38,409 nt of DNA from the UHGV virus genome UHGV-1369436; one strand, given 5' to 3'. Positions 2,549-38,379 of the stretch are shown piece after piece; the first letter of the stretch is position 1, and each line of letters starts with the position of its first letter. The notes under the pieces were generated by a model that saw nothing but the letters and a program-made list of their open reading frames with translations, was not told the DNA's origin and did no database searches. This DNA is from a virus. A program made the position numbers and the translations under genes.

Positions 2549-2701
2549 ATGGACAACGTAACTTACAAACTCGAGCAGATGGAAAACGAGGGCATGATCG
2601 AGCAGATGCACCACGACTGGTACGCATTTCGGATCAAGAACAGCTGGGCACGCAACATGAAGGCTCTCTGGCAGCGCTGGTTGATGAGTACAGTAAAATA
2701 A
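2549..2701 (+). CDS. Small hypothetical protein (50 aa).
   Basis: ATG at the end of the conserved leader with a GGAAGGAA SD. Under 60 aa, so absent from the track. Confidence 0.4.
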   Translation: MDNVTYKLEQMENEGMIEQMHHDWYAFRIKNSWARNMKALWQRWLMSTVK

Positions 2702-2751
2702 ACACACGAACACAATCAACAATAATGGTGGGCAGAAAGAGGAGAATAACA

Positions 2752-2931
2752 ATGTTCACTACAGCAATCGAAGGGTTACACGAAACCTACGAATACCGCC
2801 AGGCTAGCGTATTACGAAAACTATGGATGGATTTTATCACTACAGTATTCCTATCTGTACTATTCCTTAGCTTGCTATATTCGGTATATCTAGCTCTATC
2901 AGGACTAGTCTACCTAACAACGGGAGTTTAG
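2752..2931 (+). CDS. Small hydrophobic membrane protein (59 aa).
   Basis: Track ORF 2725..2931. Start moved to ATG 2752, which has AGAGGAG 8 nt upstream. The C-terminus is strongly hydrophobic. Confidence 0.55.
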   Translation: MFTTAIEGLHETYEYRQASVLRKLWMDFITTVFLSVLFLSLLYSVYLALSGLVYLTTGV

Positions 2932-3044
2932 TATGTTAGCAGATATTACATATCAATATCTAGAAAGCGATACAAAGGTAATTGAGGATATTATGGTTTA
3001 CAACGCACGAGAACGGATTATCCAATTAATTTTAGAGGAGAAGG

Positions 3045-3527
3045 ATGGAGAGAATCTATAGAGTGATAGCTATACGTCGCGACGGTGTGTGGCAGTATTG
3101 GGAACCGACACTGAGCCTATTCACATTCAAAGAAATACCAACAAATAGATACTACCAATACACAGAAGCACTCAGGGAATACCGAAGAGCGATAGACGAA
3201 TCAAGCCCTGATGATATATCGTGTGTTTCAATCAACGAGAAGATGGGTACCGATGGCACGTGGCACACACTCAAAGAGCGGCAATTTACCCAGAGTGAGC
3301 GATCAACAGAGTCAATCATGATAGATATTGGTACAGCTAGATTAAGCATGAAGACAACATCAGCAAAACTACGTGAGATTGCAGAATTGTCTAAACTCTC
3401 AAGAGAAACAAGGGAAGAGATTGAGCGTATTAGCAACAAGCTATACAGCCTCTCTCGACTCACATGGAATCTACAGAATAAAGTATTAAAGGAACTAGAG
3501 AATGATATACAAGACACAGAAGACTAA
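3045..3527 (+). CDS. Hypothetical protein (160 aa).
   Basis: ORF with SD GAGGAGAAGG. Confidence 0.65.
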   Translation: MERIYRVIAIRRDGVWQYWEPTLSLFTFKEIPTNRYYQYTEALREYRRAIDESSPDDISCVSINEKMGTDGTWHTLKERQFTQSERSTESIMIDIGTARLSMKTTSAKLREIAELSKLSRETREEIERISNKLYSLSRLTWNLQNKVLKELENDIQDTED

Positions 3528-3813
3528 ACAAGACCTACGAGAATCAGAAGAGACATTACAATTTGTCATGGCTGGTATCAAATGTCACCTTCCTAAAAAC
3601 CCAGCGACTCAAGTTATCCTTGAGCGCATAGAGAAAGACATTCGCCTATACGGAGACATTTGCAACATCGAAGGACGTGTTACAGAGTTTCTAGAGGAGG
3701 TAGGCGAGAATAAGCTCACCATGCTCCAGCGTGATTTTGATAACGTAAAATCAGGCAAAATGAGCTGTAAAGAAATTGCAAATAAAATCCGAAAAGAGTA
3801 TAATGAATGGTAG
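3502..3813 (+). CDS. Hypothetical protein (103 aa).
   Basis: ORF track entry. Overlaps the upstream gene. Confidence 0.55.
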   Translation: MIYKTQKTKQDLRESEETLQFVMAGIKCHLPKNPATQVILERIEKDIRLYGDICNIEGRVTEFLEEVGENKLTMLQRDFDNVKSGKMSCKEIANKIRKEYNEW

Positions 3814-3879
3814 ATGGAGGTAATACTTTCATAGCACATTTTGTAGCAGTGGTGTAGAATCTTTCTAACTACAACTATA

Positions 3880-4068
3880 GTATCTGTGCCTGGTTCCTCC
3901 TTGTTACGTGGTTAGGCACAGACACACAATACCTTTCTTCCCATGGAACAGTTTTCCCAGTTACCCGGCAAGACCACGAGACAACCCTCAACAATAGCAC
4001 GAAATGTGCTGTCTCGGTAACTGTGTTCCATGTAACACCCCACCATCTCCTCGGTGGGGTTTAACTTT
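3880..4068 (+). ncRNA. Candidate structured non-coding RNA or regulatory region ending in an intrinsic terminator.
   Basis: A 320-bp ORF-free gap. It contains a hairpin CTGTGCCT…AGGCACAG (3884-3921). Long-range complementary segments are present: CCATGGAACA at about 3950 with TGTTCCATG at about 4030, and AGCACATTT at about 3834 with AAATGTGCT at about 4008. A local hairpin AGCAC-GAAAT-GTGCT is also present. Confidence 0.25.
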
Positions 4069-4072
4069 GTCT
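4041..4072 (+). terminator. Rho-independent terminator CCCCACC-ATCTCCTC-GGTGGGG followed by TTTAACTTT.
   Basis: 7-bp GC stem, 8-nt loop and a U-rich tail, read directly. Confidence 0.6.
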
Positions 4073-4114
4073 ATACATGTTGTAAATTCTACCTGAGAAA
4101 ATAGCTAAAATCTA

Positions 4115-4143
4115 TTGCATCCCTCAACAATAAGATGTACAAT
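4115..4143 (+). promoter_or_regulatory. Early promoter TTGCAT-N17-TACAAT plus conserved leader ACAAACATAAACATAAGGCAAAGAGGAGAAG.
   Basis: 17-nt spacing. The -10 overlaps the ATG at 4135, which argues for the start at 4180. Confidence 0.55.
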
Positions 4144-4179
4144 ACAAACATAAACATAAGGCAAAGAGGAGAAGCCACA

Positions 4180-4443
4180 ATGTCAATCTACACACACTAC
4201 ACCATTGAAGCCACGACAAGGCTCGGAGAGGTATACGTATGGGATCCGCTCATCAGTGAGTATGAGTGCCAGAACAACCAGGAATCATCTGATATTAGCA
4301 CAGAGGACGAAGCTCTCGATGAATTTGGCTACGCAGTCGCAGCAGCAGACCTAGACGAGTTTATGAAAGTGAGTCTACTCCGTGTCACAGAGCTTAGCAA
4401 CGGCTCATCAGATGTATCAGTAGTAGAGTACAAGAATTTCTAG
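4180..4443 (+). CDS. Hypothetical acidic protein (87 aa).
   Basis: Track ORF 4135..4443. Start reassigned to ATG 4180, which has AGAGGAG 9 nt upstream and lies behind the promoter. Confidence 0.6.
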   Translation: MSIYTHYTIEATTRLGEVYVWDPLISEYECQNNQESSDISTEDEALDEFGYAVAAADLDEFMKVSLLRVTELSNGSSDVSVVEYKNF

Positions 4444-4451
4444 GAGGAGCG

Positions 4452-4676
4452 ATGCAAAACTGGAAAGTAAGAAAGAAACTCTATCAGGAGTCGTGGGAGC
4501 TAAAAGACATGAGGTACCGTCTCAACCTCCTCCGAGAGTTTGTAGACGACAAATACTACATCAACAACGCAACCGAATACCTCGACAAAGCCCTCAGCAA
4601 CATCGAGCTAGCAATGGATAGCAAGCAACTCAAGAAAGCATACGAACCACTAACCAAGCGAGAAAAGGAGAACTAA
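4452..4676 (+). CDS. Hypothetical protein (74 aa).
   Basis: SD AGGAGGAG 5 nt upstream. Confidence 0.65.
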   Translation: MQNWKVRKKLYQESWELKDMRYRLNLLREFVDDKYYINNATEYLDKALSNIELAMDSKQLKKAYEPLTKREKEN

Positions 4677-5469: not shown

Positions 5470-5946
5470 ATGGCTAAATCATCTTCTAGCAAGTCTGCAG
5501 ATAAGCTAGGCAGACCAAAAAGGAAATACAACGCTCCACCGGGCATGAATAACAACCCTACTGGCAAGGGCGGTTTTGGCGATAATCCACAAAACGGAGC
5601 GGGTGGTCGCTGGTCAAAAGACACCAGCATCTCGTACTGGTATAACAAGCTAGGCCGTATGACCCTCAAGGAGCTTGAAGAATTTGAGAAAAAGGGCGAT
5701 GAGCTTACTCCGTTCCAAAAGACAGCTCTCGTACGTGTTAAGCGCGCCTACAAGGGAGACTCTGAAGGCTTAGCAGAAGCTAAAGAGGTAGCAGACCGCA
5801 CAGAAGGCAAGGCCAAGCAGGATATATCTATCGACGCCAGCGATGATATGAAAACTATCATGAGAGGCTTTATTATACCAACACTACCAACGGATTGGAT
5901 CGATGAGCAAGTCGCATTGGCCCGTTCTAAACAAAGCAAAGTATGA
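5470..5946 (+). CDS. terS: Terminase small subunit (TerS). The track ORF begins at 5335; the likely start is MAKSSSSKSADKLGRPKRKY.
   Basis: Contains the motif GRPKRKYNAPPGMNNNPTGKGGFGDNPQNGAGGRWSKDT, characteristic of phage small terminase subunits. Lies immediately upstream of TerL. Confidence 0.6.
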   Translation: MAKSSSSKSADKLGRPKRKYNAPPGMNNNPTGKGGFGDNPQNGAGGRWSKDTSISYWYNKLGRMTLKELEEFEKKGDELTPFQKTALVRVKRAYKGDSEGLAEAKEVADRTEGKAKQDISIDASDDMKTIMRGFIIPTLPTDWIDEQVALARSKQSKV

Positions 5947-7504
5947 TGAGCTGCGAGAAAAGGGCTATTGGCTACCATTACCAGGCCCTCAGCAGCTCGC
6001 TATAGCGTTATCACGAGATAAGAGATTCCGTGAGATATTATTTGGTGGTTCTCGTGGTGGAGGCAAGACAGATGTGTCTATTGCTACTATTGGCGATCGC
6101 TTTGGCGACACTAGAGCCCGCCAGCTCGTCATTCGTAAAGACGCAGGAGACCTAGCGGACTTTGAGGAGCGTGCTGTAGCAGCTCTCCAGCCATTTGGAG
6201 CTAAGCTACGCCGCAATCCTATGGTGCTCTCCGCTAAAGGCTGTGGCCGTGTCATTGGTGGACACCTTCACGACGCTGAAGCTTACACAAAGTATCAAGG
6301 GCATGAGTACTGCCGTATCAATATCGAGGAGCTAACTCAGATACCAGACGAGGGACGTTATGAGAAGCTCATTAGCTCTGCTCGTAGCAAGTACAAAGAC
6401 CTATACCCTCAGGTATTCGCTACTACCAACCCAGGTGGCGCTGGCATGGGCTGGGTGAAGAAACGTTTCGTAGCACCAGACCCAGACAGGGCAGAAGTGC
6501 TCAAGATGGAGTATCCTTGGGTAGACATATACGGCAAGAAACAAGTCACACACTGGCAAATCGTTATAGATAAGCGTACAGGTATCTGGAGAGCCTATAT
6601 CCCAGCCACGATTGACTCTAACCCATTCTTGCTCGAGAATGACCCAGATTACGTGAAGTACCTCGACTCTCTCCAAGACTCAGACCCAGAGCTGTATCGT
6701 GCCTGGCGTTTTGGTGACTGGGACATTCAGTTTGGCGCTGTGTTTGAGGAGTTTCGGCAGAGTAAGCATACCTACGCCAAGTTCAGTGAGTGGGGTGTTA
6801 CAAAAGAAGCATTTGACAGCAATTACCGTGTCATGGGCATGGACTGGGGCTACAACGACGAGTGTGTACTACTGTGGGCTATGTTCGACAACATCACAGA
6901 GAAAGAGAACAGAGCGTTTATCTACCGTGAGCTACACGGTAACCACAAGCCTAAAGAGTGGTGGTGCGAGAGGATTGTGGAGATGTATCTCAAAGACCCG
7001 GTAGACTTGATAGCACTACCACATGACGCTTACAGCCACCTGGGAGGCTCTGAGACGATCGCTAAGGTGCTCAATGATACATTTGCCCGTCTTGCCCCAG
7101 ATGAGAAGCGTCCACGCATCGTACGGGCTGATAAGCTCATGAAAGATAGGAAACAGGCAGCAGTGCAGATGATTCACAGTGCTTTCGCTAACAAATCGGA
7201 TGGCAAACCTGGCCTGATATTCAGCAAATACTGCTCATACCTCATAGACACGCTACCTACCATCATCTACGCCAAGGAGTCTGGCGGTGAGGAGCTTGAC
7301 CCTAACAACGTAGACCACGCTCTAGACTCTCTCATGTACACGCTCATGACAGCCAACCGCGAGTATGGGTTCCTGGTGAATGAAGCAAAGAGAATCAACA
7401 AGCTCACCAAGCAGTCATTTACCATAAACCCAGGCGGCAGAGTAGAGGCAAAAGACATTGGAATTGATATTGCAACAGCGGTAGAGACAGATAAGCTCAC
7501 ATAA
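5903..7504 (+). CDS. terL: Terminase large subunit (ATPase plus nuclease).
   Basis: Walker A GGSRGGGKT and Walker B-like VIRKD/DE motifs. 533 aa. Positioned after TerS and before the portal. Confidence 0.8.
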   Translation: MSKSHWPVLNKAKYDELREKGYWLPLPGPQQLAIALSRDKRFREILFGGSRGGGKTDVSIATIGDRFGDTRARQLVIRKDAGDLADFEERAVAALQPFGAKLRRNPMVLSAKGCGRVIGGHLHDAEAYTKYQGHEYCRINIEELTQIPDEGRYEKLISSARSKYKDLYPQVFATTNPGGAGMGWVKKRFVAPDPDRAEVLKMEYPWVDIYGKKQVTHWQIVIDKRTGIWRAYIPATIDSNPFLLENDPDYVKYLDSLQDSDPELYRAWRFGDWDIQFGAVFEEFRQSKHTYAKFSEWGVTKEAFDSNYRVMGMDWGYNDECVLLWAMFDNITEKENRAFIYRELHGNHKPKEWWCERIVEMYLKDPVDLIALPHDAYSHLGGSETIAKVLNDTFARLAPDEKRPRIVRADKLMKDRKQAAVQMIHSAFANKSDGKPGLIFSKYCSYLIDTLPTIIYAKESGGEELDPNNVDHALDSLMYTLMTANREYGFLVNEAKRINKLTKQSFTINPGGRVEAKDIGIDIATAVETDKLT

Positions 7505-7560
7505 AGGCTAGTCTCTCTCACTCTATTTGCTGTATGATAGAGACAAACAGGAGACATAGC

Positions 7561-9690
7561 ATGCATGACGAAGACAAAGTATTTAAAGACCCAAGGGTAG
7601 ACGACATAACAACCAGCACTGGTGTGATTGATGAGCGTGATGCCCTATCTATTGATGAAGTAGATGACGCTACGCTTGTACGGCGTTTCAAGTATTGGGT
7701 AAACGACTCAGAAGCTTACTGGAATAGCAGAAGCGGTTTCAACCTACGCAACGTACGGGCACAGAATGAGCGCTACTACCTAGGCAAACAGGACAACGAC
7801 AGGCTTTACTACCACCAGGCAGACTACCGCGATAACCAGCTATTCGTTGGTATTCAAGCTGTTATAGCCTATGTCTCAGCTCGTGACCCAGGGTGTGAGA
7901 TTACTCCAGGTGATGACTCTCCAGCTAGCAAGACGCTCGCAGCACGTCTAGAAAGCGCTGTAGACCTTCACAGCCAGAAGGTACGTCTCTCACGCAAGAT
8001 CAAGGTAGCAGCCAAGAACCTCGCCCTGAAGCGTGTTGGCGTAATCAAGCTCATGTATAACCCATTCAGCAAGGAGATTGAAGCGAGGGCGCTCAACCCA
8101 GAGAAGGTTATTCTTGATCGTAACGCAGAGCTAGATGAGGAGCCACGCTTTATCTGCGAGGTATGTGAGGACACTGTAGATATTCTCATGTCTAAATTCC
8201 CAGAGAAAGAGAAGGAGATTATGAATGAGCTTGGCTTTGTGCGCAAGACCCAGAAGCTCCTCAGCACTGTTGTGGCCTACAACGAGATTTGGTTTACAGA
8301 TACTACCACTGGTGAACCACGTGAGTGTGTCGCTTGGTATTTCAACAACCTTATCTTAGATAAGAAGCTCAGCCCTATGTACGAGTACGACAACAAGGGT
8401 GTTGCTATCTGTAACTACACAGACAAGCCCACCAAGCCGTACGCCTTCTGCAATTACCTGAACGATGGTAGCCATATGATCGACCAAACATCACCTATCG
8501 AGCAGGCCATTCCTCTCCAGAACATCCTCAACCGTCGTGGTCGCCAGATCATTGACAACGCAGACACAGCTAACAGCATTAAGGTGTTCCGTGCCGGAGC
8601 TATCTCAGAGGATGACGCCAAGAAGCTCACAGGCAAGCCTAATCAGTCTGTTGTGCTCGATATTCGTGAGGACGAGCCTCTCAGCAACGCATATGGTGAA
8701 ATTCCAGCCCACTTGCTACCTAACTACGTACTACAAGACAAAGAGGACATTAAGAACAGCATCCACAACATCCTTGGTACGCCTTCTCAGTTCCGTGGCG
8801 ATGACTCGAAGCGTGACGTTGGTACACTCGGTGAAGCACAGATGATGCAGAGCCAAGCCTCTGGCCGGCAGGATGAGATTGTGCGTGAGATTGATAACAT
8901 GCTTGATCGCTACTTTAAGTTGCTCGTTCAGATGATGAAGGTGTACTACAGCAAGAACCACAAAATCTCTGGCCGTGACACTGATGGCAACTTCATCCAT
9001 GTAGAGCTATCTCGTGAGACTATCCCAGACAACGCTGTGATCGCTGTGTCACCAGGTAGCACCGTGAGTATGGACAAGAGCCGACGTGAGAACATCGCAG
9101 TGAAGCTGGCAGAGCTTGGTGTGATTGATCCATACAACCTGTTTAAGGATCTTGGCCTTAAGGACTCTAGTGAGCGTTACGAGAGCCTGGTTAAGTTCAA
9201 GACTGATCCGAACATGCTCGTGGATGAGGTGCGCAGTGAGGTACAAGATGAGGAAGCCTACATTGACTTTGCAGTCATCATGAACGGTTTCGACGCTAAG
9301 CCACGTGATGACGTGACACCGCAGCATATCCTAGCTCACAATAAGCAACTCCAGACAGACAAGTTCCTCATGGCTAACCCGAAGCTCCAGCAGAAGCTCC
9401 TGGCTCACATTGACCAAGAGGTGCTAAGTCTCAGCCAGCGTGAGAAGCTCCAACAAGCTAGCGACCAAGGCCTACTCGTAGACCCAACTATCCCTACAAG
9501 CCCAGAGATTCCAGAGCCTCAGCCACCAATGCCCGTAGACCCCTCTCAGATGCCACCAGAAGCGATGCAAGGCCAGCAGCCACCAGTAGATGGTCAACCC
9601 ATCCCTGAGCAGCCAGCACAGCCTGTAGGTGACCTAGGCGGCGTACAGGATCAAGGCACAAGCGGTATCCTCTCCGGCCTCGGGCTATAG
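7561..9690 (+). CDS. Portal protein with a Pro/Gln-rich C-terminal tail.
   Basis: 709 aa, immediately after TerL. Start set at ATG 7561, which has AGGAG 8 nt upstream (the track begins at 7534). C-terminus reads PEPQPPMPVDPSQMPPEAMQGQQPP. Confidence 0.65.
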   Translation: MHDEDKVFKDPRVDDITTSTGVIDERDALSIDEVDDATLVRRFKYWVNDSEAYWNSRSGFNLRNVRAQNERYYLGKQDNDRLYYHQADYRDNQLFVGIQAVIAYVSARDPGCEITPGDDSPASKTLAARLESAVDLHSQKVRLSRKIKVAAKNLALKRVGVIKLMYNPFSKEIEARALNPEKVILDRNAELDEEPRFICEVCEDTVDILMSKFPEKEKEIMNELGFVRKTQKLLSTVVAYNEIWFTDTTTGEPRECVAWYFNNLILDKKLSPMYEYDNKGVAICNYTDKPTKPYAFCNYLNDGSHMIDQTSPIEQAIPLQNILNRRGRQIIDNADTANSIKVFRAGAISEDDAKKLTGKPNQSVVLDIREDEPLSNAYGEIPAHLLPNYVLQDKEDIKNSIHNILGTPSQFRGDDSKRDVGTLGEAQMMQSQASGRQDEIVREIDNMLDRYFKLLVQMMKVYYSKNHKISGRDTDGNFIHVELSRETIPDNAVIAVSPGSTVSMDKSRRENIAVKLAELGVIDPYNLFKDLGLKDSSERYESLVKFKTDPNMLVDEVRSEVQDEEAYIDFAVIMNGFDAKPRDDVTPQHILAHNKQLQTDKFLMANPKLQQKLLAHIDQEVLSLSQREKLQQASDQGLLVDPTIPTSPEIPEPQPPMPVDPSQMPPEAMQGQQPPVDGQPIPEQPAQPVGDLGGVQDQGTSGILSGLGL

Positions 9691-12475: not shown

Positions 12476-13513
12476 ATGGCGTACAACTACATTACGCAGT
12501 ATGACTCGCCAAACTACACTGCTGGCCGGCAAGGCAACAACATCAGCAGTATCACAATCCACTGGTGGGGGGATCCTAACCAGAACCCTACGTTTGAGGG
12601 TGTCACAGCCTGGCTGTGCAACCCAGCAGCGCAGGTAAGCGCTCACTACGTCGTTACGGGTACAGACCGGCGTGTAGCCTGTATTGTAGACCCTGCTAAC
12701 ATCGCTTGGCACGCAGGCAACTGGGTAGGCAACCAGACGAGCATTGGTATCGAATGCGATCCACGGTGTCGTGATGAGGACTATGACGTTATTGCTGAAC
12801 TGGTAGCAGAGCTACGTAAAACTTACGGAGACCTACCACTCCGCCCGCATAACTCATGGACGAGCACAAGCTGCCCTGGCAACTATGACCTTGGCCGTAT
12901 CGATCGTATGGCTCGTGAGAAGGCTGGCCAGACCGTGCAGCGCGACCGGACTGACGAGATTAACTATCTCAATGGCTTGTACCAGCAGATTCTTGACCGC
13001 AACGTAGACGAAAACGCTATTGGTCACTACCTATCTCAGATCGACAAGGGCTGGAACTGGGATCAGATCCGTGAGGACTTGGCTAACAGCGCAGAAGGTA
13101 AGGCTGTGGCAGAGCGACGTAACGCACGTAATAATGAGCTACGAGCAGCCTACGACAGTGAGACTAACGAGATTCAGCGCCTCTACCGGGAAGTGCTTGA
13201 GCGTGATGCAGACGAGGCTGGCATTGAGCATTACCGGAATCAGATCCGTAACGGCTGGAGCTGGGGTATGGTAGCAGATGACCTACGCCGTAGTGATGAG
13301 TACAAGGAATTGCAGCGCATCAAGAACGCACCAACGCCAGAGATTCAGCATGTAGACCCAGAGCCACCGACAGAGCCAGAGAAACCGCAGGAGAGGGCCG
13401 CAGAAGCACCTCAGGAAGCGCCAAAGGCAGAGGACACTACAACTATCCTTGGAGATATTCGACGTATCCTACAGGCGATTCTAGACGCTATCACAGGTTT
13501 GTTTAAAAAATAA
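12476..13513 (+). CDS. Endolysin. N-acetylmuramoyl-L-alanine amidase (Amidase_2/PGRP-type) with two roughly 45-aa C-terminal repeats and a Pro/Glu-rich tail.
   Basis: Motifs …ITIHWWGDP…SAHYVV…IAWHAGNWVGNQTSIGIEC…HNSWTSTSCPG. The repeats LYQQILDRNVDENAIGHYLSQIDKGWNWDQI and LYREVLERDADEAGIEHYRNQIRNGWSWGMV are putative cell-wall-binding units. Confidence 0.7.
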   Translation: MAYNYITQYDSPNYTAGRQGNNISSITIHWWGDPNQNPTFEGVTAWLCNPAAQVSAHYVVTGTDRRVACIVDPANIAWHAGNWVGNQTSIGIECDPRCRDEDYDVIAELVAELRKTYGDLPLRPHNSWTSTSCPGNYDLGRIDRMAREKAGQTVQRDRTDEINYLNGLYQQILDRNVDENAIGHYLSQIDKGWNWDQIREDLANSAEGKAVAERRNARNNELRAAYDSETNEIQRLYREVLERDADEAGIEHYRNQIRNGWSWGMVADDLRRSDEYKELQRIKNAPTPEIQHVDPEPPTEPEKPQERAAEAPQEAPKAEDTTTILGDIRRILQAILDAITGLFKK

Positions 13514-27135: not shown

Positions 27136-27202
27136 TAGCCACGGTTATCGACCAATAGTGTCGTAAAATCAGATTAGTAACAACTATAAGGAGATGGAAG
27201 CA

Positions 27203-28282
27203 ATGAAGTTTTCAGAAACAGTGCAAAACATCACAAAGGACGAGTTTCTACCTCGCGTTGTTGACTTTGTTAACAACTCGAACGTTTTGACCGCTCGCGT
27301 GATGAGCAACACCAAGAAGTGGACTGGGCCAAAGGTTCAAAGTCCTACACAAACCAAGAACAGCACGACTGGTAAGTCGATCACCGACATGGAGCAGTTT
27401 GCTGTTTCTAACACCGACAACGTTAAGAACCTGAAGTGGGAACCAGCCACGGTTGTCCAGAGCGTTGTTGTGAGCCAGCTTGAGAAGGCTGTCAACCAAG
27501 CATCGAACGACAACCAGGTTGTCCGCTTGGTTGCTCAAAAGCTCGAGGAAGCTCAAAACAGCCTCGCAAACCTCATCGGTACTCAGCTTTACGGTACTGG
27601 TGCTGGCAACGACCTTGATGGTCTGGGCTTGATCGTTGACAACGGTACGGCATCTACCACTTACGCTGGTATCACCCGTGCTACGATGCCTTCGGTCAAC
27701 GCTGACGTTACAGCTGCTGCTAACGGCCTCTTGACTCTCGGCCTTATGGCTAAAGAGTTTGACGCTGTCTCAGCTGCTGGTAGCGCAAAGCACAGCCCAA
27801 CGATGATCCTCAGCGACAAGGCAACTTGGAGCCTATACGAGGAGCTGATGGGTGACAAGCTCAGCGTCCAATACAACGCTATGACTGCTCGTGGTTACAA
27901 CCGTGTTAGCGGTGGTACTCCAATGGGTACTTCTGTGCCTGCTAGCGAGTTGCACGGCTCGGCTGGGTTCGTATCGCTCGACTTTCGTGGCAAGCCATGT
28001 GTGGCAGACGACAAGGCTCCTATGGGCAAGATGTTCTTCCTCAACGAGAACTACCTGGAGTTTCGTGACCTGACCATTCCTGGCCTTGAGCGTGTGAAGC
28101 AGAAGCAGGAGGCTATCGACAGCGCTATCAGCGAGGATCAGCCTACCTGGATGCAGTTCCGCGGTTTCATGAACCCAACGAACCAGCTCGCAGAGATTGG
28201 TGCAATGGTTGTATCGGGTAACTTTATCTGTACTCAACCTCGCCGCCAGGGTGTTATCACAGGCATCACCAAGATTCGGTAG
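27203..28282 (+). CDS. Major capsid protein (HK97-like fold).
   Basis: Blocks LIGTQLYGTGAGNDLDGLGLIVDNG, SPTMILSDKATWSLYEEL and GKMFFLNENYLEF resemble the Phage_capsid family. Strong bias for GTT/GGT/GCT/CGT/AAC codons unlike neighbouring genes. Strong terminator downstream. Start at 27203 with AAGGAG spaced 9 nt. Confidence 0.6.
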   Translation: MKFSETVQNITKDEFLPRVVDFVNNSNVLTARVMSNTKKWTGPKVQSPTQTKNSTTGKSITDMEQFAVSNTDNVKNLKWEPATVVQSVVVSQLEKAVNQASNDNQVVRLVAQKLEEAQNSLANLIGTQLYGTGAGNDLDGLGLIVDNGTASTTYAGITRATMPSVNADVTAAANGLLTLGLMAKEFDAVSAAGSAKHSPTMILSDKATWSLYEELMGDKLSVQYNAMTARGYNRVSGGTPMGTSVPASELHGSAGFVSLDFRGKPCVADDKAPMGKMFFLNENYLEFRDLTIPGLERVKQKQEAIDSAISEDQPTWMQFRGFMNPTNQLAEIGAMVVSGNFICTQPRRQGVITGITKIR

Positions 28283-29315: not shown

Positions 29316-29594
29316 CTATTTCACGTCCTTCATAAAGTCTAACGGGTCTTTTTCTGTTTGCCCTGTCTCATCGCGCCATTGAGCATTGATAGTCACAGGA
29401 TCGGCGGCTTCAATGATGCCGCTATGTTTTTTGTCTTTGTTTTTATTTATGTATTGTTCCTCCGCGCCCGCGTATTTCTCCAGCCAGGAGAGGCCTGCCC
29501 GTCGTACCGTAGTAGGTACAACCGGGTCATGGCGGTTATTTAGCAAAGCGACTAGGAGGGCACAAATTGAGATGACAAGAGCTACAATATCCAT
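29316..29594 (-). CDS. Hypothetical protein with an N-terminal transmembrane helix (92 aa).
   Basis: MDIVALVISICALLVALL…. Confidence 0.5.
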   Translation of the reverse strand: MDIVALVISICALLVALLNNRHDPVVPTTVRRAGLSWLEKYAGAEEQYINKNKDKKHSGIIEAADPVTINAQWRDETGQTEKDPLDFMKDVK

Positions 29595-31072
29595 TATTCT
29601 TGATCCTTCTCAAATGGCAGAGCCACGTTAATCGATAGGAGCTGCGCAGCGACGCTGTGGCTATTTATGATTGCCTCCTCGATAGATTTAGCGCTATCTA
29701 CAATACCAGCCTCTAGAACGTCTGTGTGGTACGTCTCAGAATAAATATCGTAACCGGCCTTTGGTGTGTACGGCTTGTCCTCAGTCGTCTCCTTAGCCAT
29801 ACTACCTACAAGCATTGTGTATGGCTGTGTGAGGTAACTAGGCATATTAGTGGTGTCGCCTTCGTATACGTCGCGTAGGAACGTACCACCACCAGGGAGC
29901 ACTCCATAGTCTTTTGCAATCTGGGTAGCTGCTACAGCGTCCTCAATACGGAGCTTTAGCTCTTGCCGCTCAACCTGTGTAGCTGCACCAACGCTAATCT
30001 CAACAGTCTTACCATTCAAGGCATCACGCCGGTAATCGTCCTTGATACCTTCGATGTATTGATCCAGCTTCTCGCGGTTACCTGGGCCAGATAGGATTGT
30101 CTTTGTAGTGGTGATATGAGCGCGCTCAACCTTACCGATATTGGCATCTGTAAAGTCTGATACGCGTGGTGATACGAACACCTCAGCGCCAGCATAGGCT
30201 GCTACGTCACGAAGGAATAGCTCGCGTGCTTGACTCGATGGCTCTACTACGACAATGTTCAGTTTGCCGTTCATCTTATTGGTAGCGAGAGTCTCCAGGG
30301 CTTGGCCTGATACGTCTGCTACGAGTACGATGCTCTCTGCACCCGCCTTGAGAACTGCGTCGATAATAGGTACAATGTCATCGTTCTTGCTGATGATGCG
30401 AGACATGACAATAACGGTTGGGTTGTCGTATTTAGTCTGGATAGATTGCATATCGTCTGCGAAGGCAATGGACGACATACCTTTTTTAAATGTGAACCCT
30501 TGGACGATTTTACTCTCGATCTTATTCTCTGGTGTTTCTACCACTGTTACTGCGCCATTAGCACCAGCATCGTTAATAGCATCAAACACTAGATGGCCGA
30601 TAGCCTCATCACCTGATGACGTGTGTGCGACGCTATAGAGTAGCTCGTCTGTGGCTTTGATCTTAGTGTCTTTGATAGCCTTGATGATAGCCTTCTTATT
30701 TTGCTCAATCTGCTTTTGTACGGCTCGTGGCTTATCCTTCGCCATCTCCTTAAAGTAGTTATAGACGAGGTAGGTCATTACGATAGTAAGAGTTGTAGAG
30801 TCGCCAGCTGAACGGTTCGTTTTCTCGCTGGCCTGGCGTACAAGGGAGATTGCCATATTCTCTACTGGATCTGCTACTACGAGGCGGCCAATATTAGTAA
30901 TACCGTCATGAGATACGAGAGGCTCGCCGTAGCGGTGTTCGATCATGATATTACCAGAGTTTGCGCCATATGAGGAATATGCTACGTCGAAGGCCTTCTC
31001 AACGCCCATACTGATCTTTTTTTGTAGCTCATCACCACGTATTACATTACGTACTGAGGTTTGTTTAGGCAT
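29594..31072 (-). CDS. GroEL-like chaperonin (Cpn60 family, about 492 aa). It lacks the GGM tail.
   Basis: Alignable by eye to GroEL. AGDSTTLTIVM resembles AGDGTTTATVL. VGAATQVERQELKLRIEDAVAATQIAKDYGVLPGGG resembles [36 protein letters not shown]. C-terminal GIVDSAKSIEEAIINSHSVAAQLL resembles [23 protein letters not shown]. Start at ATG 31072, which has a GGAGGT SD. Confidence 0.7.
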   Translation of the reverse strand: MPKQTSVRNVIRGDELQKKISMGVEKAFDVAYSSYGANSGNIMIEHRYGEPLVSHDGITNIGRLVVADPVENMAISLVRQASEKTNRSAGDSTTLTIVMTYLVYNYFKEMAKDKPRAVQKQIEQNKKAIIKAIKDTKIKATDELLYSVAHTSSGDEAIGHLVFDAINDAGANGAVTVVETPENKIESKIVQGFTFKKGMSSIAFADDMQSIQTKYDNPTVIVMSRIISKNDDIVPIIDAVLKAGAESIVLVADVSGQALETLATNKMNGKLNIVVVEPSSQARELFLRDVAAYAGAEVFVSPRVSDFTDANIGKVERAHITTTKTILSGPGNREKLDQYIEGIKDDYRRDALNGKTVEISVGAATQVERQELKLRIEDAVAATQIAKDYGVLPGGGTFLRDVYEGDTTNMPSYLTQPYTMLVGSMAKETTEDKPYTPKAGYDIYSETYHTDVLEAGIVDSAKSIEEAIINSHSVAAQLLSINVALPFEKDQE

Positions 31073-31361
31073 CCAGTAAACCTCCATTTACAGCGTCTAC
31101 AGGGACAAAGATAAACATTTTACTGTCTACTTCAATCTCCTCACTGTCGTTATACTTCGTAAAATATATTTTGTTGCCAAGGAATTTCGAGAGTGTGTCC
31201 TCCTTGTCTGTAGACACACCAGAAGGGTGAATATATACAGCCTTTAGTGTGCCGCTCGTATGACTGCCGTGATCCCCTTGTGAGATAGACAGACTCGAGC
31301 CATATTTGTTAGTTACCTCTACCAGGCAAAACCCTGGCATGACGTGTAACTGTGTGCTCAT
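31065..31361 (-). CDS. GroES-like co-chaperonin (Cpn10 family, 98 aa).
   Basis: Mobile-loop-like SSLSISQGDHGSHTSGTLKAV resembles [22 protein letters not shown]. The C-terminal block …GNKIYFTKYNDSEEIEVDSKMFIFVPVDAV resembles …[35 protein letters not shown]. Lies directly upstream of and overlapping the GroEL-like gene. Confidence 0.6.
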   Translation of the reverse strand: MSTQLHVMPGFCLVEVTNKYGSSLSISQGDHGSHTSGTLKAVYIHPSGVSTDKEDTLSKFLGNKIYFTKYNDSEEIEVDSKMFIFVPVDAVNGGLLDA

Positions 31362-32032: not shown

Positions 32033-32485
32033 CTAGAAAATTTGATCGTTTGGTGTTTGTTTTCGTCTTTCCTTATAGTCTGTCATAGCCATGTATTTAT
32101 CTATTTGGTCTTTTGCATCGTCGAACCCCACCGCAAATGTGCATCGATAACCTCGCTCGCTCAGACGCTTCATGTAGGCGTGTTGCTCTGCAAAGTGTTC
32201 GTTCGCCCAGCTGCCATCTTTTTTCATGAGGCGTACCCCATCACGCTTCAGCTCGAGGTACAGCCCATGATACCACTCACCCGCTAGTTGTGCTGGTTCA
32301 GCGATAAATAGGTCTGGGTATCCTCTACCTTCCTGTAGTGCCTTATGTTTGATAGCCTGCCCCATTGTCATCTTAACGCCAGCGCTAAAGTCTGTGCGGA
32401 ATATGACTCCTGGATACTGTAGCTTTAAATAGTCCACCACCATCTGGTGGATGGTGGACTCTTTTGCGGTTCTAACTCTCGCCAC
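32033..32485 (-). CDS. VRR-NUC domain nuclease (PD-(D/E)XK superfamily). GTG start.
   Basis: VVDYLKLQYPGVIFRTDFSAGVKMTMGQAIKHKALQEGRGYPDLFI…GLYLELK matches the VRR-NUC pattern (E…G.PD..…LE.K). Confidence 0.55.
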   Translation of the reverse strand: MARVRTAKESTIHQMVVDYLKLQYPGVIFRTDFSAGVKMTMGQAIKHKALQEGRGYPDLFIAEPAQLAGEWYHGLYLELKRDGVRLMKKDGSWANEHFAEQHAYMKRLSERGYRCTFAVGFDDAKDQIDKYMAMTDYKERRKQTPNDQIF

Positions 32486-33975: not shown

Positions 33976-34387
33976 ACGCGGTTACGCCACGCTCTTTTAG
34001 TGAGTCGATAATGTCGTATGCCCTCGCCCCTCTATAGGCCTTGGCGGCCTTTTCGTTAACGGTCGCTGTTATCTCTTTATCGTTGATACGTAAGAGATAT
34101 AGCGCAGCACCTTTGATGCCAATTTTATACAGTGGCTCATCTCGCTTATCTAGTGGTGTTGATGCGTACCTATATAGTGTATCAAGCACGTACTTCCGAT
34201 GGTCTGGCGCTGTATCAGTTGTTACTCTCATGCTATATATCTCATCTACTCGCACACTACCAACACCCCAGCTTCCATCATATACGTTCACAAACGTACC
34301 ATAAGCCTCATTTTGTATGCGCGCTTGAAACCCAGCAGCTGCTAGCTCGTCGATCAACTCTAGTGTTGTTATATAGTTTTCACTCAT
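33944..34387 (-). CDS. Hypothetical protein (147 aa).
   Basis: ORF track entry. Confidence 0.55.
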   Translation of the reverse strand: MSENYITTLELIDELAAAGFQARIQNEAYGTFVNVYDGSWGVGSVRVDEIYSMRVTTDTAPDHRKYVLDTLYRYASTPLDKRDEPLYKIGIKGAALYLLRINDKEITATVNEKAAKAYRGARAYDIIDSLKERGVTAFAKEVKNATD

Positions 34388-34643
34388 ACATCGCCACCTT
34401 TGTTGCTAAGATACCCATACGCTCACGTGGTGTAAGCCCGCCTCGCATACCGTACTCTACATCTCCAGTCATCAGAGCATCTGCTAGGCACTCGCCTTTT
34501 ACTGGACACTCAGCACAAATCTTACGTGCATCGTTGTAGTTGTTGTACCCGTTATACTCATCAGCGTATGCTTTGTTGACCGGGAAAAACGCTTCCGGGT
34601 CTGTCTGTGCGCACAGTGCGCTGCCTCGCCATTTATTCTCCAT
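34380..34643 (-). CDS. whiB: WhiB-like (Wbl) 4-Cys Fe-S transcription factor.
   Basis: ALCAQTDPEAFFP…ARKICAECPVKGECLADAL…GGLTPRER. Compare the WhiB pattern C…DPE.FFP…C..CPV…CL..AL…GvWGG..e.ER. Confidence 0.7.
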   Translation of the reverse strand: MENKWRGSALCAQTDPEAFFPVNKAYADEYNGYNNYNDARKICAECPVKGECLADALMTGDVEYGMRGGLTPRERMGILATKVAMYE

Positions 34644-35688: not shown

Positions 35689-37650
35689 CTAGATATACAG
35701 GCCCTGTAGGCGCTGTAATGATTTTGCTGTTGGGTCGCTATAGAGTAGGTCACCCTTGCCAGTGAGAGCCTCAGCCCCTACCTCGTCTAGGATAATCTTA
35801 CTGTTGAGCGAGTTTGTGACACTAAAAGCGATCTTGGTTGGGATATTCGCCTTAATAAGCCCTGTCACAACGTCTGCTGATGGGCGCTGTGTTGCTAGTA
35901 TGAGGTGTATACCAACCGCCCGTGCTTTCTGCGCTAGTCTAATTATAGACTCCTCAGCAGAAGGCGGCGTGTTATCGTTGACGCGCTTCACGGCGGCTTT
36001 GAGTGCGGCCTTTGTGAGCTTACCACCTGTGAGCGTGACCTCGTCCAGGATAGCATCCTTAAGGCCTTCGTAGTCCACATTCGATAGTGGGTTTTTCTTG
36101 CTCGTCATCATAAGATCAGCAAACTCATCCACTACAACTACGATACGCGGCATCTCTCCTGGGTAGTCTGCAATGTCTCGGACGCGCTTCTCGCGTAGCT
36201 CCTTGTACCGTCTCCCCATCTCCTTTACGAGCCAGTGAAACGTCTCCGCCGCCTCCTTGGGTGAGGTGATAATATCGTTTGCAAGATGATCATCACCCTC
36301 GTACATAGCAAGCTCAACCTCTTTAGGATCGATGAGCACGAGCTTCATTTGCTCCGGTGTGAGCTGCTTCGTGAGACAGTCCAGGATTACGTTTATCATA
36401 ACAGACTTACCTGCGCCGGTCTGACCAGCGATCAAGAGGTGAGGTGTCTTTACAACGTCACAGTAGTGAACTTTACCGAAGGCGTCCATGCCGATAGGGA
36501 ATTTGAACGTGCCAGGATTAAGGCACTCATCTGTAAGAGGAACAACCTTACGATCTTTATTTGGTATTTCGATACCTACAAGGTTTGTACCTGCAATAGG
36601 GGCTTCGATACGTACAGACTCGCTCTCGAGGGCAATAGCAAGGTCGTTAGCCTTGTCTGCGATACGTTTCATACTCACGCCTCGGTTAGGCTGCATCGTG
36701 TACTTGATTACCTGCGGCCCGACGTATGTCTCACCCATCTTACCACCAATGCCAAACTCGATAAGCTTACGGAGGATCTTCTCCTCGTCTGTACCTGTGC
36801 CGTCATCGATGACAACGTTCTGTTGCTCAAAGGTATCAGCTACTCGTACTTGTCGCTTGATCTTGGCGGCGTCAAAGCCTTCTTGCTGGTTGGCGATAAT
36901 GTCCATGCTGTTCGCGCCGTTCATCCGATCGTTCATGTTGGGGAAGAACTTCGACCGGTCATCGTTTACATATTCAAATACGTTTGTGATGATTTTCTTT
37001 GCGATAGGTGCGAAAGCAAGGACAGATTGGCGATCAAAAGCAACGTCACGGCACTGTGGCGAACCATCCCGGTTGATCGTTTTCTTTATTTCTTTAAATA
37101 CTACCTCTGTTACTTTCTGATTATATTCCGCTTCTGCTAATACGAGGTAGATATAAGCTTGCATAAGGTACTTGTAACTCTCCTCGTCATCTGGGCTGTA
37201 AGCAGTAACTGTCTTGTAGTCGATAAGCCGTAGCCCATTGTCGCGCACCACCATGTCGATCACACCAACCATTGGCACGTTAGCGATACTCGCCTCGAGA
37301 CGTTTCTCAACATCTACTACCTCGTCGTAGTGTGGTGCTTCCTCAAAGTATTTATTTACGAGGCGAGTGTAGTCTTGCATCATCTTTTCACGGCTACCCG
37401 TCTTGCCAAAGTCAATCTCAGAGTCGCTTACATAGCTCATCTCCTCTAGGCCGGCCTCAATGGCAGCCTGCACGTCGCCACCGTCCTTACCGTAGAAGGT
37501 CTCCATAGCCTTGTGAAAGCTCGTACCTACTACTAGTGATGGTGTTTTAGGGTTATCGTAGATCTTTGCTATGTAGCGCTTCTGAAACTCAACTTGGTTA
37601 TTCAAGAACGTTACGATCGCTGAATACGACAGGTGGTTAACTCTACTCAT
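35689..37650 (-). CDS. Fusion protein. The N-terminal domain is a Cas4/RecB-like PD-(D/E)XK nuclease. The C-terminal domain is an FtsK/SpoIIIE-family ATPase.
   Basis: N-terminus: LSYSAI…GTSFHKAMETF…GVIDMVVRDNGLRLIDYKT…QAYIYLVL (SxS, GxxxH, D…DYK and QxxxY nuclease motifs). C-terminus: Walker A IAGQTGAGKS, Walker B VVVVDEFADL, and FtsK signature VGIHLILATQRPS. Start at ATG 37650, which has a GGAGAGGAG SD. Confidence 0.7.
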   Translation of the reverse strand: MSRVNHLSYSAIVTFLNNQVEFQKRYIAKIYDNPKTPSLVVGTSFHKAMETFYGKDGGDVQAAIEAGLEEMSYVSDSEIDFGKTGSREKMMQDYTRLVNKYFEEAPHYDEVVDVEKRLEASIANVPMVGVIDMVVRDNGLRLIDYKTVTAYSPDDEESYKYLMQAYIYLVLAEAEYNQKVTEVVFKEIKKTINRDGSPQCRDVAFDRQSVLAFAPIAKKIITNVFEYVNDDRSKFFPNMNDRMNGANSMDIIANQQEGFDAAKIKRQVRVADTFEQQNVVIDDGTGTDEEKILRKLIEFGIGGKMGETYVGPQVIKYTMQPNRGVSMKRIADKANDLAIALESESVRIEAPIAGTNLVGIEIPNKDRKVVPLTDECLNPGTFKFPIGMDAFGKVHYCDVVKTPHLLIAGQTGAGKSVMINVILDCLTKQLTPEQMKLVLIDPKEVELAMYEGDDHLANDIITSPKEAAETFHWLVKEMGRRYKELREKRVRDIADYPGEMPRIVVVVDEFADLMMTSKKNPLSNVDYEGLKDAILDEVTLTGGKLTKAALKAAVKRVNDNTPPSAEESIIRLAQKARAVGIHLILATQRPSADVVTGLIKANIPTKIAFSVTNSLNSKIILDEVGAEALTGKGDLLYSDPTAKSLQRLQGLYI

Positions 37651-38320
37651 CGTCGCTCTCCTCTCCATTATTAGCGTTAGCGGTTAGTTCTTCCTCTACG
37701 TAGATACCTGCAATGTCGAAGCCTGCACGTAGAGCGTTTGCCTCAGCACACTTAGTGAGCATCACTATAGGCATGGTTTTCCAGTTGCTTATCGGCTGAC
37801 CTTCACGGTTAGTGCGTACAAACTCATCGTAGTAGGCTGTATATCGTGTAACCTCGATTGGCGTACTCGTGTTGTCCCAGCGGCCAAATACAGGCACCGT
37901 GACGCTCAGGAGCTTATCGCCATCTTTCTTAACTTCTGCTGCACCTGTGTGAGTGTACACGCCACCCTTCCGCGCTAGCTTACGCAAACCGTGGATACTC
38001 ACGATTGGCATTAGCTCCTCGCCCCGTCGGTTCGAGTCCCAGATATATGTAGCGTAAATCTCCTTTTTAAACGGGTTCAGGCCGTACTGGTTGGCGATAG
38101 CCATAAATACCCGTAAGTCACCGATTGGACGCATCTCGCCCGTCTTGGTGAGCCCTAGGACGCTTTTATGCAAGGTGGCGATCAAGCTCAGCGTCTGCTT
38201 TTCATTCTCAGCGTTGCTGATCATACCCTTAGCGAGTGGGACGACAGGCTCATACTGGTTTTTCAGCGCAAGCTGCATAGCCCTCTTCTCGTCACGTTTT
38301 GTAATTTCTTGCTGTGTCAT
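37643..38320 (-). CDS. recT: RecT-family single-strand annealing protein.
   Basis: C-terminal MLTKCAEANALRAGFDIAGIYVEEE matches the RecT signature. Start at ATG 38320 behind the conserved leader (the track extends to 38362). Confidence 0.65.
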   Translation of the reverse strand: MTQQEITKRDEKRAMQLALKNQYEPVVPLAKGMISNAENEKQTLSLIATLHKSVLGLTKTGEMRPIGDLRVFMAIANQYGLNPFKKEIYATYIWDSNRRGEELMPIVSIHGLRKLARKGGVYTHTGAAEVKKDGDKLLSVTVPVFGRWDNTSTPIEVTRYTAYYDEFVRTNREGQPISNWKTMPIVMLTKCAEANALRAGFDIAGIYVEEELTANANNGEESDDE

Positions 38321-38350: not shown

Positions 38351-38379
38351 ATTGTAGCTCATATGGCAAGCAAAAGCAA
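38351..38379 (-). promoter_or_regulatory. Early promoter (- strand) TTGCTT-N17-TACAAT plus conserved leader AGAATCATAAGCAAAGAGAGGAGAACTTGC.
   Basis: Reverse complement read directly. Confidence 0.55.

Follow-up and report, generated by a model that had tools for sequence, protein, structure and literature searches.

A RecB/Cas4-like nuclease fused to an FtsK motor as the conserved neighbour of RecT in uncultured tailed phages

We have analysed UHGV virus genome UHGV-1369436 over its whole length of 38,409 nucleotides (the window), which represents an uncultured tailed phage and is nearly complete, and find that a gene for a RecT-family single-strand annealing protein (SSAP) is directly followed, on the minus strand, by a single gene that joins a nuclease domain with the RecB/Cas4-type fold to an FtsK motor. 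Both halves of this fusion carry intact catalytic motifs, every segment of the protein is under purifying selection, and the linkage to a RecT-like gene is tight and conserved among its relatives. On balance we think it probable, with considerable room for doubt, that the fusion is the ATP-driven nuclease partner of RecT.

The nuclease-FtsK fusion protein

The fusion gene is one uninterrupted open reading frame (ORF), base 35689 being the final base of its stop codon (Table 1). Read from its first ATG (37668) the ORF has 659 codons; the start chosen here is ATG 37650, which follows the Shine-Dalgarno sequence GGAGAGGAGAG and yields 653 residues, a length equal to that of the homologues. An earlier note, made from the sequence alone, had placed RecT and then the fusion at 35689-38320 and had described the fusion as a single uninterrupted 653-residue ORF. 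These coordinates were exact, with 38320 as the RecT ATG, and the 653-residue ORF was confirmed from ATG 37650 with no split into two genes. Three Pfam families match within the one ORF, PDDEXK_1 at 2.6e-20, FtsK_alpha at 1.5e-20 and FtsK_SpoIIIE at 4.1e-43; the domain searches that the note had proposed thus support both halves, as do fold comparison and matches to solved structures. In the predicted model, two well-folded modules (residues 1-230 and 285-653) are separated by a low-confidence tether of ∼55 residues. All of the motifs listed in the note are present, LSYS (residues 7-10), GTSFH (42-46), D132, D144-Y-K146 and QAYIY (164-168) in the nuclease and Walker A GQTGAGKS (409-416), Walker B DEFADL (508-513) and GIHLILATQRPS (580-591) in the motor.

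The N-terminal module matches PF12705 (PDDEXK_1) with 73.8 bits against a cut-off of 22, over residues 12-202 of the 659-residue ORF, and has a RecB/Cas4-type fold. H46, E115, D132, D144, K146, Q164 and K189 are conserved in 100% of 173 fusion-length proteins and, in an alignment of 22 diverse members, H46, E115, D132, D144-x-K146 and Q164 are invariant or nearly so. A sequence search of the PDB with the nuclease domain, using both the single sequence and a profile, returned nothing meaningful, and fold comparison alone was informative. Among solved structures the highest comparison score was obtained with 3L0A, a 'putative exonuclease' of E. rectale (17.0), followed by the AdnA nuclease (16.6), Dna2 (15.8), MGME1 (15.2), RecE (14.5), Cas4-Cas1 (13.9), ACE1 (13.6), lambda Exo (9.1) and RecB (8.8). 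Foldseek agrees, and AddB is also among the near folds. As modelled, the nuclease fold is nearest to those of DNA-end-resection enzymes (AdnA, Dna2, MGME1, RecE, Cas4 and AddB). The nearest predicted viral structures are stand-alone phage exonucleases named 'RecB family', 'Cas4 family' or 'Exo VIII-like', and a BFVD match of 609 residues, A0A3Q9JJK9, may be a deposited fusion-sized relative.

The label 'Cas4/RecB-like' given in the earlier note therefore holds for the fold and not for membership of Cas4 proper, which was rejected. TIGR00372 scores 24.7 bits against a cut-off of 65, and the nuclease domain contains one Cys and no four-Cys iron-sulphur (Fe-S) cluster, the nuclease domains of most family members having 0-2 Cys. 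No cas family was found in any scan of the window, where the neighbours of the fusion are RecT, small ORFs, the WhiB-like gene and a resolvase-like gene. The tether that follows the nuclease contains a near-invariant (F/L)PN-x2-D-x3-G motif (36900-36945, minus strand, residues ∼236-250) directly after the nuclease core. Its presence in stand-alone relatives as well assigns this motif to the nuclease module as opposed to the fusion junction, and a function in docking or in binding of DNA ends is possible.

Over its last 374 residues the fusion matches the solved motors of P. aeruginosa FtsK (2IUU, 3.8e-72) and E. coli FtsK (2IUS, 7.4e-69), and in the alignment of 22 members the Walker A, Walker B and TQRP motifs are invariant or nearly so. 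A match to HerA/DUF87 is weak (28.5 bits) and nested within the FtsK match, placing the motor in the FtsK clade. By these matches the C-terminal half is a genuine soluble FtsK alpha-beta motor, and both enzymatic halves, judged by their motifs, look active. Of the 'complete FtsK motor' of the earlier note the alpha-beta motor stands, while completeness does not, the protein having neither gamma domain nor membrane anchor. FtsK_gamma gave no match at E values up to 0.1; the fusion ends ...RLQGLYI and all family members stop just past RLQG. Identity as a full-length cellular FtsK was rejected on the same grounds, the N-terminus being a soluble nuclease and not a membrane anchor, and NF007615 scoring 244 bits against a cut-off of 1566. 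A role as packaging motor was likewise rejected, since a terminase large subunit and a portal are encoded elsewhere in the phage genome and packaging does not require this motor. The ∼50-residue helical insertion at residues ∼515-565 varies in length, is absent in P0111, P0112, P0118 and P0119, and has a nonsynonymous substitution rate (dN) above that of the rest of the protein.

The fusion is conserved as such. A search of 5.8 billion proteins returned full-length relatives of ∼610-710 residues at 96-99% coverage, with identities ranging from 97% down to ∼40%, and PF12705 and PF01580 are both present in 114 of the best 120 clusters. With the nuclease domain as query, a HMMER search of 1.84 billion cluster representatives gave 436 matches at E values up to 1e-3; among the top 150 of these, all 44 proteins of at least 560 residues carry the FtsK motor and 79 are nuclease-only, at 230-339 residues. 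At 50% identity the family resolves into at least 44 clusters, whose public names are missing or refer to a single domain ('DNA segregation ATPase FtsK/SpoIIIE', 'RecB family exonuclease/... EcfA2', 'hypothetical protein'). Ratios of dN to the synonymous rate (dS), computed against three close relatives at dS 0.3-1.3, are 0.008-0.03 for the nuclease segment, 0-0.014 for the tether and 0.04-0.06 for the motor. Low dN/dS in every segment excludes sequencing error and indicates that the tether itself is constrained. A frameshift or assembly artefact, a concern raised in the earlier note, was rejected since the homologues are full-length, all 78 IMG/VR loci with a complete nuclease ORF (below) are fused and the 653-codon frame is kept in three independent assemblies at the above values of dS.

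One apparent split of the fusion was found, at L057:4001-5875 (Logan SRR25490540, 28.9 kb), which had been called as a 317-residue protein (P0150) plus a 232-residue FtsK protein and is really one in-frame gene of 624 codons. It contains three internal TGA codons, two of them at conserved Gly positions, and terminates at TAA, which indicates a phage that uses genetic code 25 (TGA = Gly), a code reported for Gracilibacteria and Absconditabacteria. The upstream RecT call of 211 residues is also shortened by an in-frame stop. A naturally split nuclease/FtsK pair, which would have lent independent support to a functional link, was thus rejected for this locus in favour of an intact code-25 fusion of 624 residues. 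At least one of the 79 nuclease-only calls is therefore a code-25 truncation artefact, and some other 'stand-alone' nuclease calls may be artefacts too. Genuine stand-alone relatives of the nuclease do exist (L052 and L056), on contigs too short to give RecT context.

Linkage to RecT and the phage genome

In the window, RecT is the first gene of its operon and its end overlaps the start of the fusion. The RecT protein matches PF03837 at 1.8e-18 (67.3 bits, cut-off 24) and NCBIfam TIGR01913, 'phage recombination protein Bet', with 81.5 bits (cut-off 76.95). Its start was put at ATG 38320 because the Shine-Dalgarno sequence AAAGAGAGGAGA lies 6 nt upstream, and because the longer ORF, with ATG 38362, begins within a promoter-like element, TTGCTT-N17-TACAAT. 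At the junction, ATGAGTAG, the start of the fusion gene and the end of RecT share 8 nt, an overlap that is also present in relatives. Combined with the Shine-Dalgarno sequence located in the RecT 3' end, this indicates that RecT and the fusion are translationally coupled, and no minus-strand terminator-like site lies between the two genes.

The linkage extends to distant relatives. Within a species-representative genome collection, relatives at 94-95% identity lie on ∼38-kb contigs and those at 56-57% identity occur as prophages within Saccharibacteria-type contigs as long as 666 kb; RecT directly precedes the fusion in every case. On one ∼1-Mb contig, host housekeeping genes are followed in turn by RecT, the fusion, small ORFs, Cpn10/Cpn60 and the portal, an order indicating a prophage that starts with the RecT-fusion module. 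Relatives at 40-45% identity likewise have a RecT-like SSAP gene upstream, which in some of the loci is detected by PHROGs alone, and a RecT-like gene also flanks the fusion in one code-25 phage.

A search of IMG/VR with a profile of the nuclease domain gave 80 loci, 78 of which have a complete nuclease ORF, and in every one of the 78 the nuclease is fused to FtsK. A RecT-like ORF abuts the fusion upstream in 46 of these loci and downstream, with a gap of -4 to 0 nt, in 25, and is absent in seven, one of which has only 92 bp of upstream sequence while the other six form a single lineage (L104-L109). A RecT-like neighbour is thus present, in two gene orders, in 71 of the 77 informative loci, which backs the suggestion in the earlier note of a translocase-coupled exonuclease partner of RecT. 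PHROGs assigns the downstream genes to the same RecT/Bet families as the RecT of the window. The loci fall into about eight lineages, and the SSAP gene abuts the fusion in seven of them, in two opposite gene orders. Retention of adjacency and of start/stop overlap through inversion of gene order is the strongest evidence that RecT and the fusion cooperate. The arrangement by which a two-component recombinase is recognised, with neighbouring SSAP and PD-(D/E)XK exonuclease genes in one orientation, is conserved across lineages.

Two variations on this arrangement were observed. At L011 the RecT-like gene (185-1066) is separated from the fusion (2562-4601) by an inserted gene for a GIY-YIG protein (1852-2508), probably a homing endonuclease, which lies directly upstream of the fusion. 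In the lineage L104-L109 (∼55% nuclease-domain identity) the fusion is the first gene beside a divergent host-like region with a topoisomerase-I-like ORF of 799 residues, and the longest fusion ORF, at 727-728 residues, has an N-terminus ∼40 residues longer than that of other members.

The remainder of the window is organised as a plus-strand gene block (181-28282) and a minus-strand operon running from ∼38380 to ∼28500, in which RecT and the fusion are followed by small ORFans and by the WhiB-like, resolvase-like and GroEL-like chaperonin genes (Table 1). Most ORFs are without a PHROG or Pfam match, and no tRNA genes or terminal repeat were found in the window. In the rightward block the gene for the major head protein comes last, with ∼17 kb separating it from those for the terminase and portal and with the endolysin gene in between, an odd order for a tailed phage. 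The promoter-like element ahead of the leftward operon is tentative; it was noted by eye and was not called by a consensus scan, its -35 hexamer agreeing at 3 of 6 positions.

Table 1. Features of the window in order of position (residue numbers refer to the 653-residue fusion).
Feature	Coordinates	Strand	Evidence or remark
Replication-initiator/DnaD-like gene	678-1724	+	
Terminase large subunit	5903-7504	+	
Portal	7534-9690	+	
Endolysin	12476-13513	+	
Major head protein	27194-28282	+	
GroEL-like chaperonin	29594-31087	-	PHROG 5725 1.7e-99; NCBIfam GroEL 225 bits, under cut-off
Resolvase/endonuclease-like protein, 150 aa, possible third module member	32033-32485	-	PHROG 824 4e-17; PHROG 5702 'Holliday junction resolvase' 4e-8
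WhiB-like regulator	34380-34643	-	PF02467 7e-19
Nuclease-FtsK fusion gene, 653 aa + stop	35689-37650	-	one uninterrupted ORF
FtsK beta (RecA-like ATPase), aa 366-653	35692-36555	-	PF01580 4.1e-43, 147.8 bits, cut-off 24
TQRP arginine-finger motif	35881-35892	-	
Variable helical insertion, aa ∼515-565, between Walker B and sensor-1	35956-36108	-	alignment; modelled helices 527-540, 547-560
Walker B	36112-36129	-	
Walker A	36403-36426	-	
FtsK alpha domain, aa 285-365	36556-36798	-	PF17854 1.5e-20, 73.7 bits, cut-off 22.9, aa 286-364
Tether, aa 231-284, with conserved PN-x2-D-x3-G	36799-36960	-	predicted local distance difference test (pLDDT) <50 over 233-284
RecB/Cas4/RecE-like PD-(D/E)XK nuclease domain, aa 1-230	36961-37650	-	catalytic H46, E115, D132, D144-x-K146 (37213-37221), Q164
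Coupling junction	37643-37666	-	Shine-Dalgarno 37656-37666 in RecT 3' end; fusion ATG 37650; RecT stop TAG 37645-37643
RecT/Bet-family SSAP, 225 aa, first gene of operon	37643-38320	-	PF03837, TIGR01913, PHROG 252 and 2780
Promoter-like element TTGCTT-N17-TACAAT	38351-38379	-	by eye, ahead of leftward early operon; tentative

The WhiB-like gene suggests an actinobacterial host. The closest contigs to the window are binned with Atopobium/Atopobiaceae metagenome-assembled genomes (MAGs) and with one Saccharibacteria MAG, and WhiB was not detected in the Saccharibacteria-type prophage loci that hold the relatives of 56-57% identity. Candidate hosts are Actinobacteria, their Saccharibacteria epibionts, or both. 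The resolvase-like gene (137-150 residues) is co-conserved 3' of the fusion across lineages, including the lineage without RecT (L107:8079-8492); in L005-L009, which are Saccharibacteria prophage loci, it follows the fusion at a distance of ∼1 kb. The 150-residue protein of the window has no Pfam match, and a resolvase function is a weak call from its PHROG matches. Distant fusion-bearing relatives also encode Cpn60 (L049:11115-11914; L059:15034-16907), with Cpn10 in addition in L059, which indicates that the chaperonin accompanies phages of this group. The scan of 37 window ORFs found no integrase. The lineage with inverted gene order contains a tyrosine-integrase-like gene (L117:3420-4310; PHROG 1, 1.6e-43) ∼0.7 kb upstream of the fusion, which suggests that phages of that lineage are temperate.

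Proposed function and rival explanations

FtsK forms a hexamer around duplex DNA. In the reading that we favour, RecT and the fusion would constitute a phage recombination module of the SSAP-plus-exonuclease type in which the exonuclease is motorised. The alpha-beta half would assemble into a hexameric ring around duplex DNA and pump the duplex from its beta face to its alpha face using ATP, the direction in which FtsK moves DNA being beta toward alpha (PMC7321959). As the nuclease is attached through the ∼55-residue tether to the N-terminus of the alpha domain, pumping in this direction would bring the DNA out at the face that carries the nucleases, up to six in number. These would cut or degrade one of its strands, presumably the 5' one, in an ATP-dependent manner and leave a 3' single-stranded tail, which would be handed to the co-translated RecT for annealing. 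We hold this particular mechanism of ring and nucleases less firmly than the partnership with RecT, and lean slightly against it. Such a module would be likely to serve in recombination-dependent replication, in repairing broken phage genomes and in generating mosaic genomes. A scan of 37 of the 58 window ORFs found no other exonuclease.

Several points weigh against this reading. The loci are not phylogenetically independent, falling into about eight lineages, and one of these, L104-L109, shows no RecT-like gene in 0.7-4.9 kb upstream or in up to 5 kb downstream of the fusion, so that the fusion may act without a phage SSAP or have another role. The family-library scans covered all but ∼20 of the 58 window ORFs, and these may include a second exonuclease. 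The geometry is also awkward, as a ring loaded at an end and pumping beta to alpha travels away from that end, so that simple exonucleolytic resection of the end would call for looping, or for endonucleolytic cuts in the duplex as it emerges. Single-stranded ends are the normal substrate of PD-(D/E)XK exonucleases, FtsK has no unwinding activity, and a wedge or pin element was not recognised in the fusion. Finally, the monomer model (AlphaFold2) has a predicted template modelling score of 0.47, which leaves the orientation of the modules undefined and says nothing of how the nuclease docks on the ring.

The best-surviving alternative is that the fusion, together with the resolvase-like protein, processes branched or concatemeric intermediates of replication or recombination, giving packageable DNA and not recombinogenic ends. 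The motor would move along such phage DNA while the nuclease trimmed flaps, branches or stalled structures. Co-conservation of the resolvase-like gene in the operon fits this explanation, as do the resemblance of the nuclease fold to the flap and end processors Dna2 and MGME1, the established ability of FtsK-family pumps to act on duplex DNA and to strip or pass obstacles, and the presence in Mycobacterium phage Thibault of an FtsK-like protein, gp178, two genes from a Ku-like end-binding protein. However, the fusion has no gamma domain and no Xer-type recombinase partner, and its tightest conserved neighbour is the SSAP and not the resolvase-like gene. We regard this explanation as unlikely, while noting that it overlaps with recombination with RecT and may not be exclusive of it.

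A further proposal is that the tethered nucleases, driven processively by the soluble motor, destroy the host chromosome early in infection for nucleotide salvage, which would supply phage replication in hosts poor in nucleotide synthesis, RecT being adjacent only through shared early expression. The position of the fusion as second gene of the early operon is consistent with this, PHROGs places phage FtsK-like proteins under 'host takeover', and one lineage is without RecT. Many relatives, moreover, come from phages or prophages of the reduced-genome Saccharibacteria, and one from a code-25 phage; bacteria of the candidate phyla radiation (CPR), including Saccharibacteria, are thought to be poor in nucleotide synthesis and to salvage nucleotides. 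Co-timing alone is nevertheless a poor explanation for a RecT gene whose start/stop overlap with the fusion recurs in 71 of 77 informative loci and survives inversion. The family is also found in prophages, at least one of them with an integrase, where an unregulated chromosome shredder would be risky, and the nearest nuclease folds are those of resection and recombination enzymes. Host destruction is for these reasons rather improbable.

A prophage defence or superinfection-exclusion nuclease of the 'HerA/FtsK capture' type, cutting incoming or replicating foreign DNA, is very improbable. Pairs of a restriction-endonuclease fold with HerA/FtsK do recur in defence (DndH, PMC10853773; DUF4297-HerA, PMC11291478), PADLOC SspH models match the motor at 5e-49, and the gene can lie at a prophage edge beside host genes. 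The PADLOC match is confined, however, to the shared FtsK module (positions 1536-1659 of 1766), sensor, methylase and target-recognition domains are absent from the fusion, and the gene sits in the phage's own RecT operon and not in a moron island, leaving the coupling to RecT unexplained. That exonuclease and FtsK-like genes were wrongly joined by a sequencing or assembly error can be set aside, given both domains in 114 of 120 clusters, fusion in 78 of 78 IMG/VR loci, a linker dN/dS of at most 0.014 and the finding that the sole apparent split consists of same-frame ORFs parted by TGA within an intact code-25 fusion.

Comparison with known systems

The motor has the same alpha-beta organisation as cellular FtsK/SpoIIIE and as the FtsK-like proteins of phages such as Thibault (gp178) and the SPO1-like phages of Bacillus, and is 39-40% identical to cluster J phage proteins. 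It differs from cellular FtsK/SpoIIIE in having no membrane anchor, linker or gamma domain, the last of which reads the FtsK-orienting polar sequences (KOPS) and activates XerD, and from the isolate phage proteins examined in that these have no nuclease domain whereas the fusion has one at its N-terminus. Thibault gp178 (JN201525.1, L053 3604-6296), the nearest FtsK-like protein from a phage isolate, consists of 442 residues with alpha and beta domains only and is encoded two genes downstream of gp181, a Ku-like protein that binds double-strand breaks, a hint that soluble phage FtsK-like proteins act at DNA ends.

The nuclease shares its fold and catalytic motifs with Cas4 and with the stand-alone phage 'Cas4/RecB family exonucleases', and its closest relatives in sequence are the 79 nuclease-only proteins. 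Unlike Cas4, the fusion has no four-Cys Fe-S cluster and no cas context, and it carries a motor. DndH, which in some clades includes an FtsK alpha domain, combines a restriction-endonuclease fold with HerA/FtsK (PMC10853773), and DUF4297-HerA (PMC11291478) is another combination of a nuclease with HerA. The fusion resembles DndH/SspH in pairing a nuclease with a HerA/FtsK ATPase, the PADLOC SspH model matching its motor. DndH/SspH proteins, however, are of ∼1,500-1,700 residues with many domains, have a type-II-like endonuclease and are without an SSAP, whereas the fusion has 653 residues and is coupled to RecT. Membership of DndH/SspH was rejected, as the large architecture (inactive helicase C-domain, target-recognition domain, inactive methylase, restriction endonuclease and HerA/FtsK; PMC10853773) is absent.

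Searches for earlier descriptions were largely negative. Megablast of the locus against 50,697 phage records gave no match. In tblastn against these deposited phage genomes the whole fusion matched through its FtsK half alone, and the nuclease domain gave one weak match, to a Cas4-like gene. A nuclease-FtsK fusion is not among the NCBIfam models. A 2017 survey of the Cas4 family reports pfam12705 fusions to UvrD-like and other helicases and mentions neither FtsK nor HerA. The earlier note had called the architecture undescribed; this stands for the fusion and its RecT linkage, neither of which was found described in the literature covered (the 2004 survey of the FtsK-HerA superfamily lying outside it), and does not stand for the broader idea of coupling nucleases to pumps of the HerA/FtsK class, which is known from NurA-HerA and DndH.

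To our knowledge, every exonuclease so far characterised as partner to a phage annealing protein, whether lambda Exo, RecE or a stand-alone Cas4/RecB-like enzyme, is ATP-independent. RecT and the fusion resemble lambda Red (Exo plus Bet) and Rac RecET in being an SSAP-plus-exonuclease module and differ in that the exonuclease would be motorised. If this is correct, a RecT partner with its own double-stranded DNA (dsDNA) pump would be a new phage recombinase design, a large protein family that is unnamed or labelled by a single domain would gain a function, and soluble phage FtsK-like proteins would be given a task in recombination and not in segregation, packaging or host takeover. Recombineering rests on RecT plus a cognate exonuclease, and a RecT-fusion pair native to Saccharibacteria, Actinobacteria or code-25 phages could help to engineer hosts that are hard to engineer.

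The closest functional parallels are cellular. RecBCD, AddAB and AdnAB, like the fusion, combine an ATP motor and a RecB-family PD-(D/E)XK nuclease in one polypeptide and resect ends processively. Their motors are superfamily 1 helicases that unwind DNA by moving on single strands, and their nuclease is C-terminal, whereas the fusion is a predicted dsDNA ring translocase with an N-terminal nuclease; the AddB and AdnAB nucleases contain an Fe-S cluster, which the nuclease of the fusion does not. NurA-HerA couples a hexameric dsDNA pump of the HerA/FtsK class to a nuclease and carries out translocation-dependent resection of the 5' strand, leaving a long 3' tail (PMC9960219). The fusion would resemble it as a pump plus nuclease that resects ends for homologous recombination, a resemblance that is functional only, as HerA and NurA associate non-covalently in a 6:2 complex, NurA lies outside the PD-(D/E)XK nucleases and HerA has no FtsK alpha domain. 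NurA-HerA also serves cellular repair in archaea and Deinococcus, with Mre11-Rad50 and RecA/RadA and not with a phage SSAP. If the proposed function holds, the fusion would be a covalent, single-gene analogue of both NurA-HerA and RecBCD/AddAB and an attractive structural target. It could even represent a third, independently evolved design for ATP-driven end resection, in which a homo-hexameric FtsK pump bearing six tethered RecB-like nucleases at its DNA-exit face serves as dedicated exonuclease to RecT across a large uncultured phage clade with many members that infect Saccharibacteria or other CPR bacteria, a proposal that we hold tentatively and lean slightly against. Combined, these comparisons indicate that each of the domains, and the pairing of a nuclease with a HerA/FtsK-class pump, were known, and that what is new is a compact fusion of a RecB/Cas4-like exonuclease with the FtsK alpha-beta motor as the conserved neighbour of RecT.

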